From Synechococcus sp. A15-28 (GTDB lineage Bacteria; Cyanobacteriota; Cyanobacteriia; PCC-6307; Cyanobiaceae), in contig NZ_CP047931.1 in assembly GCF_014280175.1 (NCBI RefSeq), positions 510,001 through 542,000 of the forward strand: a stretch of DNA of 32,000 nt. Reading direction: 5' to 3'. The notes beneath the pieces were generated by a model, which saw only the letters and a list, made by a program, of their open reading frames with translations, was not told the origin of the DNA and did no database searches. Position 1 is the first letter of the stretch, and each line of letters begins with the position of its first letter. A program made the position numbers and the translations under genes. This document shows positions 4,241 to 30,886 of this stretch, one piece after another.

Positions 4241-5197
4241 CTACAGCAGATCATCGTCGTCGAGGCGTTCGCCCGGACCAGCCGCGAAGGCCAGCCAGAG
4301 CGGGAACTGCAGCACGGGGATGTCGATGCTGCGCTCGGCGGCATCGATCAGGATCAGCGGCACTTCGCCCCGTTCCTCCAGCCGGTCGGCCCGTTCCACC
4401 AGGGCTTCTGGCCGTTCGAACAGCACGATGCCGCTGCTGGGGCCGAAGTCTTCCCGGCCCAGGCCCAGGGCATCCTGCAGGCCCCGTCGCCATTCGCCGA
4501 GCCGTTCCGGGCCGCCGGCCAGCACTAGGCACTGGAACTGATCGCCGTAGAGCTCGCCGATGATCGCGATCAGCGCCGCGCTGGCCAGGATGTTGCGGGG
4601 CCGGGTGCCGCGGCTGGGCTGGGCCCCACGGCCCCCTTGGTTGAAGAACCAGTCCTCCAATAGGGCGATGTCCTTGGCATCGACGCTACGACGCAGGTTC
4701 CAGGGGTCGGCGTAGACGTCCGGCTGTTGGAGGAAGCGCTGCAGCGAATCGCGGATCAGCGTTTCGTCGGGGCGGAAGGTGTCGGCCACCGCCGGTGCTG
4801 GGCTGCTCTCATCGGTGCTCGCCGGTGCCGCTGCGTTGCTGGCGGCCTGATCCAGCGGTGAGGGTTGCACCACCATCGGCTGCACCACCAGTTCCAGGCT
4901 TTCCACGCTCTGCACCAGGCCCTGCAGGGCGCCGCCCAGGTACTCCTGGAAGCCCTTTACCCGGCGGGCGATGGCATCGGATTGGCCGGCAAAGCTGGTT
5001 TTCAGTTCGGCCTCCAGCTGTTGCTTGCGGCTGGTCATCTCGGCGATCTCCGCCTCCAGGGCATCGCGGCGCTGCTGCAGATCCTTCAGCGCCAGCTCCA
5101 TCACCGGGTTGTCTGCGCTGGGTGACGGCTCGGTGTCGGATGCCTGCGGGGTCAGGGCGGTGTCGTCGGGCATTGCGTCAGCGGCCGTGCTCTCCAT
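4241..5197 (-). CDS. Conserved hypothetical protein, coiled-coil N-terminal half plus globular C-terminal half (possibly DUF3086 family)
   Basis: Long ORF with a heptad-like segment (LKDLQQRRDALEAEIAEMTSRKQQLEAELK). The ORF-track start at 5230 is GTG; I prefer the first ATG at 5197 (MESTAADAMPDD), with 5173 also possible. The family name is from memory only. Confidence 0.6.
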   Translation of the reverse strand: MESTAADAMPDDTALTPQASDTEPSPSADNPVMELALKDLQQRRDALEAEIAEMTSRKQQLEAELKTSFAGQSDAIARRVKGFQEYLGGALQGLVQSVESLELVVQPMVVQPSPLDQAASNAAAPASTDESSPAPAVADTFRPDETLIRDSLQRFLQQPDVYADPWNLRRSVDAKDIALLEDWFFNQGGRGAQPSRGTRPRNILASAALIAIIGELYGDQFQCLVLAGGPERLGEWRRGLQDALGLGREDFGPSSGIVLFERPEALVERADRLEERGEVPLILIDAAERSIDIPVLQFPLWLAFAAGPGERLDDDDLL

Positions 5198-16986: not shown

Positions 16987-18093
16987 GTGATCCAGGAAAG
17001 GAGTTGTCATGGTGGGTTGAGAGCCGATTCGCTGCAGCTCGTGCCCGTTGTGCCGCATCGCCTTCGTTGGTGGATCGCCCTCGTTGCTGCAGCGTTCGCT
17101 TTGACGCTGGCTCTGGGGTTGCAACGGCCATCGGTGCAGCCGCCGATGGCAGCACCTTCGGAGGCTTCCGAAGAGATTGATTGGGGCGCACCGAATGCAC
17201 AGCCATCCCTTGCTGAGGAGCAGCTGCTGCAGGTGGGGGCCTACATCACCAACATCAGCGAGATCGACCTGAGGGAAGACCAGTTCTCCATCGAACTGTT
17301 GCTCTGGACCCTCTGGCATGGGGATCCGGATCAGAACCCCAGTGATCAGTTGCGCGTCCTCAACGGCATCTACAACGGTGATATCCAGCGCTTCGAGCGG
17401 ATCCGCCGGGATCAGGCGGAGGCTCACAGCTGGAGCTTGTACAAGGTGCGTTCACCCGTGGTGAAGCGCTGGCGCCTGCAGCGCTATCCCTTCGACGACC
17501 AGCTCCTGCACGTTCAGATCGGTCTTGATGACCCCTTGCAGCCGGTGAACCTGGATGTGGTGCCGCAGGCCCCCTGCAGCGTGACCCCTAGCCTGTTGCT
17601 GCCGGGCTGGACCCTGAAGGACCCAAGCGGTTACGCCTCCAGCATCAGCCTGATGAATGATCTGGGCCGTCCTGTCTCCGATGGCATTGCGGTGCGCCGA
17701 CAACCCACCGTTTCGTTTGATCTGCCGATCCAAAGGCGCAGCTTGCTGTTCGTTGCCCCTGATTTCCTGGGTTACCTGCTGGCGGTCGGACTCTGTTGCA
17801 TGAGTCTGCTGATCACTCGCAGTCGGGACGATCTGATCCTTGCGGCGGTGGTGTCCGCCGGTGGCAACTATGTGTTCATTGCCGGCAATCTCCCTGTGAC
17901 GGCCATGACCGGTTTCATTGGCAATCTGCAACTGATCATTTTCCTGGGCATTCTTTATGTCGTTGCTGCAGACGAACTGATCGACAATCAGCTCAGTCTG
18001 ATCAATACACGGTTTGCTGAGGGGCTGCGGGTGCTGCTTCTGCCCAGTTACGTGGCGATGACGTTGCTGGGAATCTGGTGGATCATTCCATGA
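16987..18093 (+). CDS. Prokaryotic pentameric ligand-gated ion channel (pLGIC / Cys-loop receptor superfamily) homologue
   Basis: The extracellular domain begins VGAYITNISEIDLREDQFSIELLLWTLWHGD. The Cys-loop-equivalent motif is WRLQRYPFDDQLLHVQI (RYPFDDQ at 17482..17502; compare RYPFDSQTLH in GLIC as I recall it), followed by PGWTL. Four TM helices follow, including an M2-M3 junction ...FIAGNLPVT..., with a very short M3-M4 loop. The signal-anchor-like N-terminus is RLRWWIALVAAAFALTLALG. Start uncertain: GTG 16987, or TTG 17017 downstream of AAGGAG at 16998..17003. Confidence 0.85.
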   Translation: MIQERSCHGGLRADSLQLVPVVPHRLRWWIALVAAAFALTLALGLQRPSVQPPMAAPSEASEEIDWGAPNAQPSLAEEQLLQVGAYITNISEIDLREDQFSIELLLWTLWHGDPDQNPSDQLRVLNGIYNGDIQRFERIRRDQAEAHSWSLYKVRSPVVKRWRLQRYPFDDQLLHVQIGLDDPLQPVNLDVVPQAPCSVTPSLLLPGWTLKDPSGYASSISLMNDLGRPVSDGIAVRRQPTVSFDLPIQRRSLLFVAPDFLGYLLAVGLCCMSLLITRSRDDLILAAVVSAGGNYVFIAGNLPVTAMTGFIGNLQLIIFLGILYVVAADELIDNQLSLINTRFAEGLRVLLLPSYVAMTLLGIWWIIP

Positions 18094-19190
18094 CCAAACA
18101 TTCAGCGCGTCACCCCTCCGGCTACTGGACGTTGTTGACGTCCGGGCTCACCGTTGTGATCGCTCTGGTCGGCGCCTTGTTGATTCAGCCGCGTTTGAGT
18201 GAACGTCGGCTCGATATTGACGATCAATACATCCTCACCGCCACTGAAGTGCGGTCTCTTCCCGCGGGTACCCTCGCGGTGGTGCTGGATCGTTCCCCTG
18301 GCGAAGACCACAACGATTTCAAGTACCGCCTGCTGGAGCTGGTGCTCAAGCGCAGCGGTCGTCCCTTCGTCCTTGGACTCAGTGAAGTGGACGTCTCGCA
18401 AGATGAAGCCATTGCTGCTTTGGAACAAGGATTCGTCTTTGATTCGGCGGGCCTGCGAACCTTCACGCGCTTAGGCCGCAATCCCTTTGCCCTGAGCGTC
18501 GGTATCTATGGCGCTGGCGTGGATCTGAACCGGCGTCTGCGGGCCGTGCCCATTCCCGTCACTGGTGGCATCCTCGGACTCCGCAGCGGTTGGACCCATC
18601 GGAGTCAGATCAAGCGGCTGGCCACGATCCGCAACAAGCAGGACCTCCGCGACATCGTTCTGCTCCAAGGGGTGGGCTGGAGTGATGTGAACATCTTTGA
18701 TTCGGCGGGCCTGCGAACGTTCACTGCCCGATCGGAGAACCTATTTCGCCTGGTGGATCACCAACGGGTGCAGTTGTTCCCCAGAGGCATTGCGGAGTTG
18801 GAGCGGGAGGAACAGTTGATGGCGTCGTTTACATCCGGCACCACCCTGGATCCGAATCTGCTGCTGGCCTATCCCTACGCAGGGTTCTTTTACGTCAGTC
18901 CTGACAATCATGCACTGGCGTATGCGATTCAAAGGGGGTTTCAACGGGCGATCGCGGATGGGTCCTATCAGCAGTTGGTGGAAGAGCTGATCTTCACCCC
19001 ATGGTTGCGCCGCACGCTGTTGCTCAAGGATCGCCATGTGATTGTGTTACCCAATTCAGAGGCGGCGGATGTCCTGGAGGAGGTGGACAGCCGACATTGG
19101 ATTGTGCCCTGGCATGAACTGCTGAAAGGAGACATCCAAACCGGAAAACAGTTGTGTGCCGAGCCAAAGTTGAAGGCTCTCTGCTTTTGA
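18090..19190 (+). CDS. Membrane-anchored periplasmic solute-binding-like protein (family-3 SBP-like)
   Basis: ATG 18090 overlaps the pLGIC TGA (ATGA, 18090..18093). N-terminal TM anchor YWTLLTSGLTVVIALVGALLI. The body resembles uncharacterised family-3 SBP domains (...VPIPVTGGILGLR..., ...LFRLVDHQRVQLFPRGIAELEREE..., ...LLAYPYAGFFYVSP...). No adjacent ABC permease or ATPase. Confidence 0.7.
   Translation: MTKHSARHPSGYWTLLTSGLTVVIALVGALLIQPRLSERRLDIDDQYILTATEVRSLPAGTLAVVLDRSPGEDHNDFKYRLLELVLKRSGRPFVLGLSEVDVSQDEAIAALEQGFVFDSAGLRTFTRLGRNPFALSVGIYGAGVDLNRRLRAVPIPVTGGILGLRSGWTHRSQIKRLATIRNKQDLRDIVLLQGVGWSDVNIFDSAGLRTFTARSENLFRLVDHQRVQLFPRGIAELEREEQLMASFTSGTTLDPNLLLAYPYAGFFYVSPDNHALAYAIQRGFQRAIADGSYQQLVEELIFTPWLRRTLLLKDRHVIVLPNSEAADVLEEVDSRHWIVPWHELLKGDIQTGKQLCAEPKLKALCF
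18436..18466 (+). repeat. Copy 1 of a 31-nt intragenic direct repeat (encodes FDSAGLRTFT)
   Basis: TCTTTGATTCGGCGGGCCTGCGAAC-C-TTCAC. It is identical to copy 2 except for one synonymous position. Confidence 0.9.
18694..18724 (+). repeat. Copy 2 of the 31-nt intragenic direct repeat
   Basis: TCTTTGATTCGGCGGGCCTGCGAAC-G-TTCAC, located 258 nt (86 codons, in frame) downstream of copy 1. Confidence 0.9.
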
Positions 19191-19415: not shown

Positions 19416-19727
19416 TTGAGACTGTGCCTGGCCTCCGTTTTGGACGACAACTCAACCTCAGGGAAAGGACTGGACCCGGCATTGAGGGAACGTCTGATCC
19501 GTGAGTCACGCACTCCCTGGCGGGAGCTCCGGCGTTTGCTCTGGTTCGCTTTGTTCGCCTCCGCTGGTCTTGGGCTCTTCACCATGCTCTTCCGTGCTTC
19601 TGCCGGCGACAGCGTCGACATCTCCGATTTCGGGATCCAGGGGGGTGCTCTCGTCCTCTTCGCCAGCCTCCTCTGGTTCGACCGCAACCGCAGTGTCGAT
19701 GTCGATCAGGATGGAGTCGACGGCTGA
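19416..19727 (+). CDS. Small two-TM membrane protein (DUF3493-like)
   Basis: ...LDPALRERLIRESRTPWRELRRLLWFALFASAGLGLFTMLF...GIQGGALVLFASLLWF matches my recollection of the DUF3493 layout. The 19416 start is TTG; the TTG at 19440 is equally plausible. Confidence 0.6.
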   Translation: MRLCLASVLDDNSTSGKGLDPALRERLIRESRTPWRELRRLLWFALFASAGLGLFTMLFRASAGDSVDISDFGIQGGALVLFASLLWFDRNRSVDVDQDGVDG

Positions 19728-20471
19728 GTCAGCTTCAACGATCTCTTCAGTGCTGGGTTCCGGTTCCGTTGAAGGTTCCGGAGTTGGTGATGGGGTGGGT
19801 TCCGGTTCCTGGATTGGTTCGGGTGTTGGTTCCGGTTCCGGGGTGGTTTCTGGAGTTGGTGAAGGGGTTGGTGCCGGAGGGTCAGGCCAGGTCAGGGCAT
19901 TCAACTGAAGGATCTGCAGCCCCAAGCTGGTGCGCTCCTGCTGCAATTGTTCAACGCTCCACGGCTCCGTGTCTGCGTTGGTTCCAGGTCCCCCCACCAG
20001 CAACAGCAGAGCCTGCACCAGTTGCTGGATTTGCCAGATCAGCAACGCCATCAGTGGCGCCGTTAACAGCAAAGTCACCAGTCGCGAGCTGTCCTGGAGG
20101 GGCGAAAATTCGTGGATCAGTCCCGCTGACGCATCCAGCCACCACAGCAGCGGCAACAACAGCGCTGCACCACCCACCAAGGCTGAGCGGCTCCCCCACT
20201 TGCCCTCTGAGGCGCTGAGCCTGAGCTGATCATTGCTGCGGGACCCCACAGGGCGACGGATCAGCAGCAGTGATCCCCAGTCGGCAGGTCGTTTCCAAAG
20301 CGCAACAGCCGGAGCCACAACGCCGACTCCCCAGATCAACAGGCGCTCAACGATCGGCACTGGGCCCGGATCCGCCCCTGCCAGGAGGAGGCGGATCAGC
20401 AGCAGTTCCAGGGGAATCACGCCGATGGCCAGGCATTGAAGCCAAAGCAGGGGTTCGCGACGGGACTGCAC
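19506..20471 (-). CDS. Membrane protein with Pro/Thr/Glu-rich low-complexity C-terminal tail
   Basis: GTG start 14 nt downstream of the infB stop. Four or five predicted TM helices in the first ~160 aa, then PDPPAPTPSPTPETTPEPEPTPEPIQEPEPTPSPTPEPSTEPEPS and an acidic tail. The last 73 codons are antisense to the DUF3493-like gene. Confidence 0.6.
   Translation of the reverse strand: MQSRREPLLWLQCLAIGVIPLELLLIRLLLAGADPGPVPIVERLLIWGVGVVAPAVALWKRPADWGSLLLIRRPVGSRSNDQLRLSASEGKWGSRSALVGGAALLLPLLWWLDASAGLIHEFSPLQDSSRLVTLLLTAPLMALLIWQIQQLVQALLLLVGGPGTNADTEPWSVEQLQQERTSLGLQILQLNALTWPDPPAPTPSPTPETTPEPEPTPEPIQEPEPTPSPTPEPSTEPEPSTEEIVEADSAVDSILIDIDTAVAVEPEEAGEEDESTPLDPEIGDVDAVAGRSTEEHGEEPKTSGGEQSEPEQTPELPPGSA
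19752..19886. repeat. Degenerate short tandem repeats (GGTTCCGGTTCC-like) encoding the PT/EP-rich linker
   Basis: Visible on the plus strand as repeated ggttccgg / ggtgttgg units. This corresponds to aa ~196-240 of the minus-strand protein. Confidence 0.7.
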
Positions 20472-25786: not shown

Positions 25787-26287
25787 CTAGGAGCCAGGGG
25801 TCGTGAGGCGGACGCTGAGGACGTGATCGCGGGGAAGACGTTTGATCCGGCCGCGGATGTTGATCTGCAGCGTGTCTTCGTCCCGCTCAAGCAACAGCCC
25901 CTCCAGCCGCTGTTCGGTGCCCTCTTTGTCGCGATGCACCACGTCCACAGGGAAACCCCGGAAGGTCTGGAAGTCGCGATCACTGGACAGGGTCTCCCCG
26001 ATCCCAGGACTGCTGATTTCCAGAACATAGGCCTCGGAGAGCAGCTGGGCATTCTCGAGGGCGTCTCCAAGCGTTCCACTGAAGCCAGCGCAGTCATCAA
26101 GGCTGACGTCAGCACCATTGGAGCGGCGGATATGAACCTCGAGGGTTATCGGGGCCATATGCGTCAGCAGCTGGATTCCGCTGAGCTCAAATCCCTGCAT
26201 TCCGGCCACGGATGTGGCCAGAGTTTCGAGTTCAGGAAGCAGGGGATGCGGCAATGGAAACTGAGATCGGGCCTGCCCGACGTGCAT
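25787..26287 (-). CDS. rimP: Ribosome maturation factor RimP
   Basis: ...LEVHIRR..VSLDDCAGFSGTLGDALE...YVLEISSPGIGETL... is the RimP signature. It lies upstream of nusA, as in the conserved rimP-nusA-infB operon. Confidence 0.9.
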   Translation of the reverse strand: MHVGQARSQFPLPHPLLPELETLATSVAGMQGFELSGIQLLTHMAPITLEVHIRRSNGADVSLDDCAGFSGTLGDALENAQLLSEAYVLEISSPGIGETLSSDRDFQTFRGFPVDVVHRDKEGTEQRLEGLLLERDEDTLQINIRGRIKRLPRDHVLSVRLTTPGS

Positions 26288-26360
26288 TCAGTTGTGGCCG
26301 ATCTCCCTCAGGAGCTGCGCGTCGGACACGACTTCAATGTATCTGACGGCCCGCCGCGCG

Positions 26361-26636
26361 TCAGGTCTTGGGCAAGTCGATGGATGGTGCATCGGGGAAG
26401 GCATCGCCCTTCTGTTCAGCACCCCTGAGCTCAGGGTCCTGATTGATGCACTGGCGTTGTTGATCAGGCGTTTTGAGGTACTGGCAGACCCGGCTCCAGA
26501 GCTTGCTGCGGCTGCCCTTGGGGCCATTGCTGAACTGCACGGCGTCCAGCGCGCCGCCATTGGATTCAATCGAGACCTGGCACAGAGGGCAGCGAAGAAT
26601 CTCCGGGGTAGCGGTCACGGTTGGAAGACGGAACAC
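26361..26636 (-). CDS. Hypothetical small CxxC-containing (putative zinc-binding) protein
   Basis: ...EILRCPLCQVSIESNGGALDAVQFSNGPKGSRSKLWSRVCQYLKTPDQQRQCIN. It has four Cys, with GTG starts at 26636 or 26618. Third-position G+C is visibly higher in this frame than in the overlapping plus-strand ORF 26292..26693. Confidence 0.45.
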   Translation of the reverse strand: MFRLPTVTATPEILRCPLCQVSIESNGGALDAVQFSNGPKGSRSKLWSRVCQYLKTPDQQRQCINQDPELRGAEQKGDAFPDAPSIDLPKT

Positions 26637-26677
26637 GACGAGACACTAGTCAGTGCCCCGTCTGTGGCGCTGATGGA

Positions 26678-27145
26678 TCAGTTGCAACCTTGAACGGAAA
26701 TGCGGTAGCTGAAACCGGTGGCTTTCGGGTCTTTGTTGGCCCCCACCTTGAAGTTCACCTGGCTGATGCTTTTGCCCTGCACCTGTGAGAAAGGACCGAA
26801 CATGCGGCCGGTGCCGAGTGGGGGCTGCAACTGTTCATCAGCAACTTTGAGGTTGCTGCCGTCGCTGAATTTGATAAAGGCTTCGATCGGATAGCTGGTG
26901 GAGTCGCTGGAGTCGGCCGTGAAGAACAGCTTGAAACTGCTGTAGGGCTGGTCCACCACGAAATCGGTGTTCCAGTTGGTGCGCCCGATTGTGATTCCGA
27001 TCAGGCCCTTGGGGCGTTCCACCTTCTTTTTCACGATGGCTTCGCCACTGCCAACGGGCTTAAGAAATGTGCAGGCCGCCTCAGCGGTGACGGGGGCCAG
27101 CAGCAGCAGAGCAGTGCCGCTGAGCAGTGGGATCAAACGAGACAT
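26678..27145 (-). CDS. Unknown secreted protein, 155 aa, immediately downstream of the radical SAM gene
   Basis: ATG 27145 lies 8 nt after the rSAM stop. Signal peptide MSRLIPLLSGTALLLLAPVTAEA. The mature part is beta-strand-like, with Cys near both ends (ACTF...VQGCN). No family recognised. Confidence 0.6.
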   Translation of the reverse strand: MSRLIPLLSGTALLLLAPVTAEAACTFLKPVGSGEAIVKKKVERPKGLIGITIGRTNWNTDFVVDQPYSSFKLFFTADSSDSTSYPIEAFIKFSDGSNLKVADEQLQPPLGTGRMFGPFSQVQGKSISQVNFKVGANKDPKATGFSYRISVQGCN

Positions 27146-27153
27146 GGATCGAG

Positions 27154-28338
27154 TCAGTGGGTTGGTTGGGGGGTGAGCGGAGGTCCGGCTTCGAAGCGTT
27201 CCAACAGCACCTGAACAGGGATCTGGGTGCCGAAGCGGCAAGCGTTGGTCTCGCTGGAGGCGAGGCTGCCGTGTTCCCAGAATTTGTTGCTGCCGTTGCC
27301 GCCACCGCAGAGGCCGAAGTATTTACAGCCGTTGTGGCAGGTCTCCACACCGCGGCTCATGTCCGCGAAGAGGCGCTGGAAGTGATCGGTCTGGGTGGAC
27401 TCCACCAGAGACACGTCCTTCAGGTTTCCCAGGTTGAAGGTGCCGTAGCGATCGCTGGCTACCGAGAGGAGCTCAGGGTCGAAAGTGGAGAAGTTCCCCT
27501 GCCAGTCGACGCTGAGGATGGAGAAGGGGCGGTTCAGTTCGTTCTGGGTCATGCGTTGGTTCCCCTGGATCAGGCTGATCACCTGCTGGAACTCGCGCAG
27601 AACCACGGGGTAGCCGTCCTGTTCGCTGAGGTGCCAGAAAGCCCTCAGAAAATCGCGGTACTTGGCCTCCATGGCTGAGCCCTGCATGGAGGAGCTGGTG
27701 TGAATGCCCTCCTGCTCTTCCACGTTGAAGCCGACATCGTTGATGCCGTGATCGCGGAAGAAGCGGTACATCCGCTCCGGCTGCTCCATGGCATCGGCGG
27801 TGAGCACCGAGATGCAGTGGAAGGGCACATCGTTGCGATGCAGAGCTTCAATCCCCTTCATCGCCAGAGAGTGGGAACCGCGCCCGTTGCGGAAGCAGCG
27901 GTGGGCGTCGTGAATCTCTTCCGGACCATCCACGCTGATGCCCACCACGATGCGGTTGCGGTGGAAGCAATCGCACCAGGCGTCGTTGATCAGCGTGGCG
28001 TTGGTCTGCAGGTGCTGGGTGAACTCCAGCCCTTCGGCACCATGCTCAGCAAGGCTGCGCTGCAGGATCACCGTGGCCTGGTCGTACCAACTTGTGGGCA
28101 AGGTGAGGGGTTCGCCGGCGTGCCACACCAGCGAAAACTCGGGGCCGGCGTAGGGGCTCTCGAGGATGCGCTGCACCAGTAAGGGCAACAGCTCGAGATC
28201 GAAGACCCGTTTTTTCTGCCGATCGGGCAGGTAGCAGTAGGAGCAATCGAGATTGCACAGCGCGATGGACTGCACCACCACAAGGCCGATGGGCCCGAAC
28301 CGGTTGAGGTCGGGCCCAGTTTTCAATGAACTGATCAC
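27154..28338 (-). CDS. Radical SAM/SPASM-domain peptide-modifying enzyme (GRRM-system type)
   Basis: CNLDCSYC (CxxxCxxC) near the N-terminus, GEPL, and a C-terminal auxiliary Cys cluster CHNGCKYFGLCGGG...TNAC. The probable GTG start at 28338 overlaps the precursor TGA (GTGA, 28335..28338). The ORF-track TTG start at 28392 lies inside the upstream gene. Confidence 0.88.
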   Translation of the reverse strand: MISSLKTGPDLNRFGPIGLVVVQSIALCNLDCSYCYLPDRQKKRVFDLELLPLLVQRILESPYAGPEFSLVWHAGEPLTLPTSWYDQATVILQRSLAEHGAEGLEFTQHLQTNATLINDAWCDCFHRNRIVVGISVDGPEEIHDAHRCFRNGRGSHSLAMKGIEALHRNDVPFHCISVLTADAMEQPERMYRFFRDHGINDVGFNVEEQEGIHTSSSMQGSAMEAKYRDFLRAFWHLSEQDGYPVVLREFQQVISLIQGNQRMTQNELNRPFSILSVDWQGNFSTFDPELLSVASDRYGTFNLGNLKDVSLVESTQTDHFQRLFADMSRGVETCHNGCKYFGLCGGGNGSNKFWEHGSLASSETNACRFGTQIPVQVLLERFEAGPPLTPQPTH

Positions 28339-28721
28339 CAGTTGACGAAGCCTCCGCCGCCGTTGCCCCAGGCACCGCCGCCGTTGCGCCAACCACCGTG
28401 GTAACCGCCGTTACCCCAGGTGGGACGGCTGTTGCTCCACTTGTTGCCGCCTTTGCCGTTCTTCCATTTGCCACTCCCGTAGCTGTTGCCGAACTTGTGG
28501 CCGCCGCCATTGCCCCACTTGCTCTTGGCGACTAGCTCACCATCGTTGTCGATCGTCTTCAGCAGGGAGCTCCAGTCGCCGTTACGAACGGAATCGATGC
28601 GGGCCTCGATGCTGTTGGCAAGGGAATCAGGCGCCACGTAGGTGGAACCGGCCTCTGCGCTCTGGCAGAGAACGGCACTGGATGCGATGAGGGCCTGGAA
28701 GGCGATGAGGGAACGGTTCAT
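28335..28721 (-). CDS. rSAM-associated Gly-rich repeat protein (putative modified precursor)
   Basis: 128 aa. Signal peptide MNRSLIAFQALIASSAVLCQSAEA, a ~43-aa non-repetitive region, then KWGNGGGHKFGNSYGSGKWKNGKGGNKWSNSRPTWGNGGYHGGWRNGGGAWGNGGGGFVNW (nt 28338..28520). Confidence 0.85.
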   Translation of the reverse strand: MNRSLIAFQALIASSAVLCQSAEAGSTYVAPDSLANSIEARIDSVRNGDWSSLLKTIDNDGELVAKSKWGNGGGHKFGNSYGSGKWKNGKGGNKWSNSRPTWGNGGYHGGWRNGGGAWGNGGGGFVNW

Positions 28722-28767
28722 GGCGAATCAGTTGGCGGTTTGGAGACGTCATGTTTGAAAATCGTGG

Positions 28768-29658
28768 TCAGCTCCCCGGGGTGACCACGGTGGAGATTTC
28801 TGCAGTGATGCTCAGGATGAGCCCATACAGGGAACTGATTCCCGAACGGGTCAGGCCAACGCTGCTGCCAGGGCCGATCCAGCGATCCACCATCTCTCTG
28901 GTGCCAGCGTCACCATCCATGTAGGCCTGCATCATCTGGCCGATGGCGAGATTGGCCTGGGACAGAAGCTTGCCGTTGTTCTGGCTGACGATGCAGCCGA
29001 CGCCTGAACGTCCGTAGGGGCGGAACGGCAACAGGGCTGTTGTTTCGGGGCTGCTGTTGGCAGCCAGCCAGAGTGTTCCTCCTCCAAGGATGGGAACCTC
29101 GCCGCTGTTGTAAGCGCTCAGTGCTTCGGCGGGGGTGTCGAAAGCCTTGAACGTGGCGTCTGGAATCACACTCTCCAAAACCTTGGCTGAGGCACTGTCC
29201 TTAACGACACCAATGGTTTGCTCCTTGAGCGAGTCCGGTGTCCCATCGACGGTGGTGTCGCTGGAGGTCAACAACCGTGTTCCACTTACACCAAAGGGAA
29301 GGCTGTAGCTCAATTGGGTGGAACGGTCCCAGGTGAAGGCGACCCCACAGGCGATGTCCGCTTTACCGGTGATCACTGCGTCGATCCCGTCCTTGACCGT
29401 GGAAGCCACTTGATAGCTGACCTGGCCACGGCCGGATTGCATGCGGATCTGTTCGAGGACATCGACGCCGAATCCCTCGTAGCCGGAGTCGGTTTTGCTG
29501 TAGAGGGGCTTGACTTCCTCGAAGATCACAGCATTCAAGGTGCCAGCAGCAGGTGACTGTTCAGTTGTCTTGGTCGCTTCACGTTCCGCAGATGGTTGGC
29601 CTGAGCACGCTGAGAGCAGAGCTATGGCTGCAAGGGCTAAGGCGGCGCGTAGCTGCAT
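28768..29658 (-). CDS. Lipoprotein, family-3 periplasmic solute-binding protein (amino-acid-binding type), orphan
   Basis: Lipobox LLSAC after a signal peptide. Two-lobed SBP pattern (...GFGVDVLEQI..., ...GKADIACGVAFTWDRS..., ...IGVVKDSASA...). No adjacent permease or ATPase genes. Confidence 0.78.
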   Translation of the reverse strand: MQLRAALALAAIALLSACSGQPSAEREATKTTEQSPAAGTLNAVIFEEVKPLYSKTDSGYEGFGVDVLEQIRMQSGRGQVSYQVASTVKDGIDAVITGKADIACGVAFTWDRSTQLSYSLPFGVSGTRLLTSSDTTVDGTPDSLKEQTIGVVKDSASAKVLESVIPDATFKAFDTPAEALSAYNSGEVPILGGGTLWLAANSSPETTALLPFRPYGRSGVGCIVSQNNGKLLSQANLAIGQMMQAYMDGDAGTREMVDRWIGPGSSVGLTRSGISSLYGLILSITAEISTVVTPGS

Positions 29659-29689
29659 AAAACAATTGCTCCTCCAGTCGTTTAAGTGA

Positions 29690-30886
<1,197 letters not shown>

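Follow-up and report, generated by a model that had tools for sequence, protein, structure and literature searches.

A 32,000-nucleotide stretch of Synechococcus sp. A15-28 (NZ_CP047931.1, positions 510,001 to 542,000; hereafter the window, whose own numbering is used throughout) holds three adjacent minus-strand genes that very probably form a grrP-grrA-grrM cassette of a marine Synechococcus-type picocyanobacterium. We place the cassette in the Grr/Osc branch of the 'triceptide' peptides made on the ribosome and modified after translation (RiPPs), with the precursor GrrA predicted to be stapled by the enzyme GrrM through OscB-type chemistry and then exported. Sequence comparison and profile searches establish the membership of all three genes in curated families, their constant order, and the GTG start of grrM. 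Although the exact sequence had not been seen before, the genes themselves are not new. The family and its enzyme chemistry have already been described and curated, as has the gene neighbourhood.

Family membership and gene order

The first gene of the cassette, grrP (28768..29658), encodes a 296-aa exported, solute-binding-protein-like 'orphan' protein that matches TIGR04262 (extracellular substrate binding-like orphan protein GrrP) at 321.5 bits against a cut-off of 190, as well as PF00497 (SBP_bac_3). It is followed by the precursor gene grrA (28335..28721; 128 aa plus stop) and by grrM (27154..28338), which encodes a 394-aa radical S-adenosylmethionine (SAM) cyclophane-forming peptide maturase. 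Over residues 2–128, GrrA matches positions 3–118 of the NCBIfam model TIGR04260 (GrrA/OscA1 family cyclophane-containing rSAM-modified RiPP) with 76 bits (cut-off 31). GrrM matches TIGR04261 (cyclophane-forming radical SAM/SPASM peptide maturase GrrM/OscB) with 578.2 bits (cut-off 310), its residues 22–383 covering profile positions 1–362 of 363, and it also matches PF04055 (Radical_SAM). All three genes pass curated GrrA, GrrM and GrrP models, and the locus needs no new category. An earlier sequence-only reading of this DNA had taken it for a GRRM-type pair and named TIGR04260 and TIGR04261 as the models against which to check it; the pairing of precursor and enzyme was right, and both proteins score above the respective cut-offs, but the system is a triple whose upstream member, GrrP, had been missed.

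Database homologues of GrrA and GrrM come from Synechococcus, Prochlorococcaceae and Cyanobium, the best matches being 95% identical. Several of the 192 GrrA homologues found carry the NCBI name GrrA/OscA1, and GrrM homologues are likewise named by NCBI, whose pipeline assigns these names automatically. In a locus scan restricted to one genome per species, which returned 80 loci (individual loci and genomes are given below by L numbers), 29 were picocyanobacterial, and in every one of these a [WF]xN-rich precursor lies directly upstream of the enzyme gene. The co-occurrence of the two genes expected from the sequence-only reading thus extends to all picocyanobacterial loci examined. GrrP lies upstream of GrrA in all 28 picocyanobacterial loci with enough flanking sequence.

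The cassette sits in the picocyanobacterial core chromosome, with infB, nusA and rimP downstream and an HtrA-type protease gene and rpiA upstream. A Synechococcus genome (L084) lacks grrPAM at the same htrA / rimP-nusA-ylxR-infB site, and because the cassette is missing there as a whole, the three genes can be regarded as a unit. Judged by this synteny, the cassette occupies one fixed chromosomal site in some genomes and is missing from it in others; it is also found in other genomic contexts (L005, L006, L008 and L016). No transporter or protease gene is present among the cassette genes. A promoter and terminator scan of 26000..30200 detected neither a promoter-like site nor a terminator within the cassette, although such a scan is uninformative for a cyanobacterium.

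The stop codon of grrA lies in the string tggTGA and shares a GTGA overlap (28335..28338, minus strand) with the start of grrM, the GTG at 28338 being in frame with the 394-aa protein that ends at 27154. A GTG at position −4, in frame with GrrM, is kept in 17 of 18 picocyanobacterial loci, the exception reading ATGGTAA, and in three loci (L012, L017 and L019) it is the sole start codon upstream of the conserved GPIGL segment. We rejected a start at TTG 28392, which would give a protein of 412 aa, since an upstream TTG occurs in only one other locus. The overlap and the translational coupling it implies had both been proposed from the sequence alone. Conservation of the overlap supports coupling, which would supply the enzyme where its substrate is made.

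The GrrA core and the predicted chemistry of GrrM

Residues 68–128 of GrrA (28338..28520, minus strand) form a Gly-rich cationic core (net charge +8) that holds eight [W/F]-x-N triplets and ends in an invariant Trp. A regular-expression count places [WF]xN at residues 69, 77, 86, 95, 102, 111, 118 and 125, with spacings of 8, 9, 9, 7, 9, 7 and 7, in agreement with the 128-aa reading frame, the Cys-free 61-aa core and the eight triplets reported in the sequence-only reading. The core (K68-W128) contains 23 Gly and 9 Asn and no Cys. All eight of its non-terminal Trp or Phe residues have Asn at +2, and eight of the nine Asn sit at +2 from a Trp or Phe. Since none of 200,000 composition-preserving shuffles of the core reached eight triplets (maximum seven, once; mode one), the pattern is not a by-product of composition. 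Eight is also the modal triplet count among GrrA homologues (79 of 120), and alignments of 33 diverse and 46 close members revealed that W69, N71, W102, N104, N120, F125, N127 and W128 are invariant or nearly so.

GrrM contains two cysteine motifs, both picked out earlier from the letters of a roughly 394-aa protein and both invariant in 78 of 78 aligned homologues: the radical SAM [4Fe-4S] motif C28-x3-C32-x2-C35 (CNLDCSYC; 28234..28257, minus strand) and the putative auxiliary Fe-S ligands C334-x3-C338-x5-C344 ... C367 (CHNGCKYFGLC...C; 27238..27339, minus strand). A further cysteine, C122, is nearly invariant in the same homologues. With its radical SAM motif starting at residue 28, GrrM cannot accommodate an N-terminal RiPP recognition element (RRE) or PqqD-like domain.

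The closest solved relatives of GrrM are the anaerobic sulfatase-maturating enzyme (anSME; 4k36-4k39, E 5e-25) and the triceptide synthase ChlB (9gm3, E 1e-17), which share with it the radical SAM core and a C-terminal CX2-3CX5C segment. anSME differs in substrate and reaction; its CX2CX5C aligns with the C334–C344 segment of GrrM, whereas the three upstream cysteines of its Aux-I cluster and the fourth Cys of CX2CX5CX3C are missing from GrrM. GrrM does not reach the cut-offs of the generic SPASM models (PF13186, 14.8 bits against 21.5; TIGR04085, 18.3 against 27), and it has only four invariant C-terminal cysteines compared to the canonical seven. Because the Aux-I cysteines are absent and the SPASM models fall short, GrrM probably binds one auxiliary cluster rather than two. 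This is a nuance to the NCBIfam 'SPASM' label and does not contradict family membership.

OscB (IPR026357) has been co-expressed with its precursor in E. coli, where nuclear magnetic resonance located crosslinks between residues i and i+2 (PMC11002830). It links Trp-C7 to the C-beta of Asn or Asp and Phe-C4 to the C-beta of Asn, yielding three-residue cyclophanes (PMC11002830, summarising Nguyen et al., Nat Chem 2020), and this account agrees with the joining of an aromatic ring to the C-beta at +2 that the sequence-only reading had named. According to its title, as listed among the references of PMC11851443, a 2024 paper reports that OscB gives a uniform topology and accepts diverse Gly-rich precursors. 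The precursor and enzyme of the window pass the same profile families as OscA and OscB from Oscillatoriales, and they share with them the Gly-rich core with repeated Trp/Phe-x-Asn and a precursor gene directly upstream of the enzyme gene. Unlike the Oscillatoriales system, the picocyanobacterial branch is always found with GrrP and has a fixed single precursor copy, about eight sites, and the grrA/grrM GTGA overlap.

By homology with OscB, GrrM should install OscB-type links at up to eight GrrA sites. In the cytoplasm, its radical SAM cluster would abstract a hydrogen from the C-beta of each +2 Asn, and this carbon would then be joined to the ring of the position-0 Trp (at C7) or Phe (at C4) to form a three-residue cyclophane. 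Each link would cost 2 Da, with up to eight sites available in the 61-aa core.

We consider it distinctly unlikely that GrrM instead makes another modification, such as an ether or C-N link of the DarE/DynA type or a bond at a different ring position. The idea draws on the chemical variety of related enzymes, among which XncB uses Trp-C6, WprB joins Trp-C5 to the C-gamma of Arg, and DarE forms ethers. XyeA/XyeB (XncB) and FxsA/FxsB (MscB) resemble the GrrM system in that radical SAM enzymes form three-residue cyclophanes on an aromatic-X-X3 motif, but their links run from Trp-C6 to Arg or Asn and from Phe-C4 to Ser. GrrM does score against models of other maturases, yet far below their cut-offs: 64 bits against 450 for XyeB (TIGR04496), 108 against 370 for FxsB (TIGR04269), 147 against 445 for YhhB, 142 against 450 for DynA and 92 against 650 for DarE. 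The second-best family for GrrM is AmcB (NF041718, a cyclophane-forming radical SAM peptide maturase), matched over nearly the full length at 279.6 bits, but GrrM is not a member, as the cut-off is 425. GrrM and OscB, by contrast, belong to one curated NCBIfam subfamily, whose cut-off GrrM clearly exceeds, and the W-x-N and F-x-N motifs of GrrA are exactly those reported for OscB. We give next to no credence to a further alternative, in which GrrA is an unmodified secreted Gly-rich structural protein and GrrM acts elsewhere, for example as an anaerobic sulfatase maturase, their adjacency being incidental. It would fit anSME being the best solved relative and the label 'Anaerobic sulfatase-maturating enzyme' that one source gives a GrrM homologue. 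However, GrrM reaches only 159.5 bits against the anSME model TIGR03942 (cut-off 349), no sulfatase gene is present among the genes neighbouring the cassette, and the 4-nt overlap ties grrA to grrM. Moreover, precursor and enzyme genes adjoin each other in all 29 picocyanobacterial loci and also in 19 loci from outside the cyanobacteria, whose precursors are otherwise unrelated yet [WF]xN-rich.

Leader-like segment, predicted export signal and GrrP

Between the N-terminus and the core, GrrA residues 25–67 (28521..28649, minus strand) make up an acidic leader-like segment with a net charge of −3, and across 116 homologues the mean charges are −2.3 for the leader and +9.0 for the core. The segment carries a conserved motif, P31-D ... 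(I/V)-E-x-R41-(I/V)-x-x-x-R46 followed by A65-(K/R), in which P31, R41 and A65 are nearly invariant. An AlphaFold2 model of GrrA built on the 46-sequence alignment is of low confidence (mean predicted local distance difference test score 55, predicted template modelling score 0.18); it contains helices at residues 3–27 and 38–46 and nothing else that is confident, and the core is disordered. The 'folded N-domain' of the sequence-only reading is not borne out, as just the one short helix stands between the signal helix and the core. Since only helix 38–46 is modelled there, residues 25–67 look like a leader-like segment with one recognition helix rather than a folded domain. Its conservation suggests that GrrM, without an RRE domain, may recognise the short helix (I/V)ExR(I/V)xxxR ahead of the core.

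GrrA residues 1–24 (28650..28721, minus strand) constitute a predicted Sec-type signal peptide, cut after A-E-A24. In the N-terminus, MNRSLIAFQALIASSAVLCQSAEA followed by G, a basic n-region precedes a hydrophobic stretch of 16 residues and an A-x-A site. A Sec-type signal peptide had also been named in the sequence-only reading, and family comparison, from which the prediction now draws its support, finds this n/h/c layout throughout. A signal-like N-terminus is present in all members of the GrrA family recovered, and a scan of 1.84 billion representative proteins returned only 44 clusters matching the family, all of them signal-like at the N-terminus. Across clades the N-terminal sequence diverges while the n/h/c layout and a site of the A-x-A type are retained. 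We rejected C19 as a lipobox cysteine because A-V-L, the residues before it, do not match a lipobox and because other clades lack the Cys.

Several non-cyanobacterial precursors bear twin-arginine motifs at this position (SRRSLLRTLAGGA, DRRRFLKGVLG). One of them, from Gemmata, passes both TIGR04260 (33.2 bits, cut-off 31) and TIGR01409, the model of the twin-arginine translocation (Tat) signal (18.2 bits, cut-off 16.7). Tat motifs replace the Sec-like signal in precursors of Proteobacteria and Planctomycetes (L028, L030, L031, L032, L033 and L037; open reading frames just upstream of position 5001). Such a swap of Sec for Tat at the same position would be difficult to account for if the N-terminus were not an export signal. 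The Tat pathway transports substrates completed in the cytoplasm, and modification before export fits with this; it is plausible that GrrA is modified in the cytoplasm prior to export. Given the signal features of GrrA and the Tat-type signals of its distant homologues, the stapled pre-protein would be exported by Sec and cut by signal peptidase I after Ala24, with no need for a dedicated RiPP protease or transporter. Cyanobacterial Sec and Tat signals can target the periplasm or the thylakoid lumen. The cationic stapled product would leave the cytoplasm for the periplasm or possibly for the thylakoid lumen.

GrrP is likewise predicted to leave the cytoplasm. Its N-terminus, MQLRAALALAAIALLSAC, carries the lipobox LSAC, and the N-terminus of GrrP is signal-like in every locus, with either a lipobox (LVAC in L011-L019) or a signal-peptidase-I site. 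Among solved structures, GrrP is nearest to the Venus-flytrap domain of BvgS and to reconstructed amino-acid-binding proteins. The family keeps the carboxylate-binding (S/T)WxR positions of amino-acid-binding proteins in all but one homologue (L027). In the GrrP of the window and its closest relatives (L001, L002 and L004), Gly (GGGT) takes the place of the alpha-ammonium-binding Asp (in the 'TDSP' motif of AncCDT-1), and L005 (AGPS) lacks this Asp as well; the other 21 aligned homologues retain it, one of them as Glu. Because most GrrPs keep both the Thr/Arg and the Asp positions, binding of the free carboxylate of GrrA Trp128 by GrrP finds no support as a general idea. As an exported protein with a solute-binding fold, here a lipoprotein, GrrP would be a likely partner of the stapled product.

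Several observations weigh against a GrrA that is stapled by OscB-type chemistry, exported, and met by GrrP. The h-region of GrrA is only moderately hydrophobic (mean Kyte-Doolittle about 1.7), and among the 46 close homologues it is unusually well conserved, which could point to a role in recognition. The chemistry is transferred from OscB, and other cyanobacterial members of the GrrM family share only 38–50% identity with the GrrM of the window. GrrP, for its part, has two in-frame stops (LLT-stop-NDT and MQA-stop-MDG) in the nearest lineage, whose GrrM is 95% identical (L086, 2672..3550; L087, 1689..2567), whereas GrrM is intact there and so is GrrA, which has nine triplets; 21 further places are similar. 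As the structure recurs in more than 20 contigs, the broken GrrP seems to be a genuine pseudogene and not a product of faulty assembly. With stop codons in GrrP beside intact GrrA and GrrM, GrrP is not indispensable: it is strongly linked to the cassette, yet apparently dispensable in at least one lineage.

The hydrophobic N-terminus could alternatively be a RiPP leader element on which GrrM docks, the product staying in the cytoplasm or exiting by an unlinked route. The moderate hydrophobicity of the h-region favours such a role, as does the conservation of R3, S4, L5, I6, F8, A10, L11, A13, S15, A16, C19, Q20 and A24, each at least 90% conserved in the 46 homologues and together more than is usual for signal peptides. 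The lack of an RRE domain in GrrM, which leaves the leader elements it uses undefined, points the same way. We nevertheless regard this alternative as unlikely: a docking element does not account for a layout and cleavage-site type that persist while the sequence diverges across clades, nor for distant homologues that carry twin-arginine signals instead, one of which passes a Tat model. In addition, the partner GrrP is always exported, and the element conserved across phyla is the helix after the signal and not the hydrophobic stretch.

For the picocyanobacterial Grr system, we found no experimental data or product function in the literature that could be searched. As a low-confidence speculation, the product may be an envelope-associated or secreted cationic, protease-resistant peptide. 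We also put forward, tentatively and as one possibility, that GrrA is a RiPP stapled in the cytoplasm, exported by Sec (by Tat in other phyla), trimmed by signal peptidase, and active as a cationic polypeptide with multiple staples in the periplasm or thylakoid lumen, GrrP recognising it as part of a ligand-receptor or chaperone pair. If so, GrrA would rely on general secretion rather than on a protease or transporter of its own, in some of the ocean's most abundant phototrophs. The locus can be annotated grrP-grrA-grrM with confidence, and the known chemistry is unchanged. Marine and freshwater picocyanobacteria commonly carry the cassette. The comparative additions made here are modest refinements; they concern the Sec and Tat signals, the helix in the leader, the split of charge between leader and core, the probably single auxiliary cluster of GrrM and the limits of the cassette.

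Cassette boundaries and wider relatives

Immediately downstream, starting 8 nt after grrM, ORF155 (26678..27145, minus strand) encodes a conserved hypothetical protein of 155 aa. It has a predicted signal peptide (…LLAPVTAEA, then ACTF), a Cys at the start of the mature protein and another close to the C-terminus (…SVQGCN); it matched no family in Pfam or NCBIfam. We rejected it as a fourth cassette gene, as a homologue occupies the same htrA / rimP-nusA-ylxR-infB position in the grrPAM-free L084 and as it has far more homologue clusters than GrrA (747 versus 192). Judged by gene order, ORF155 belongs to the syntenic backbone upstream of rimP-nusA-infB, outside the cassette. On the same L084 synteny we rejected the HtrA-like protease (29714..30886, plus strand) as a cassette component that would act as leader protease.

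Beyond cyanobacteria, GrrM-like enzymes of 38–43% identity occur in Hyphomicrobiales, Myxococcota, Gemmata, Chthoniobacterales and deltaproteobacterial metagenome-assembled genomes. In the 19 non-cyanobacterial loci, the upstream precursors share a plan of signal, helix motif (DVQARAAELE, DQRVAKIREAL) and [WF]xN repeats. The non-cyanobacterial loci (L028-L051) are without GrrP. Twelve have a conserved gene of about 190–285 aa beside the enzyme gene (for example L029, 6127..6960; L038, 6135..6965; L051, 4067..4903), which has no Pfam or NCBIfam match and is a putative accessory protein of the wider GrrM-like family.

Elsewhere in the window, two adjacent open reading frames of about 370 aa (16987..18093 and 18078..19190, plus strand) have no NCBIfam match at E <= 1e-10 and are possibly not genuine genes. 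The open reading frame at 19506..20471 (minus strand), which lies just downstream of infB and has no relation to the cassette, matches NF033183, 'low-complexity tail membrane protein', with 206 bits against a cut-off of 90.

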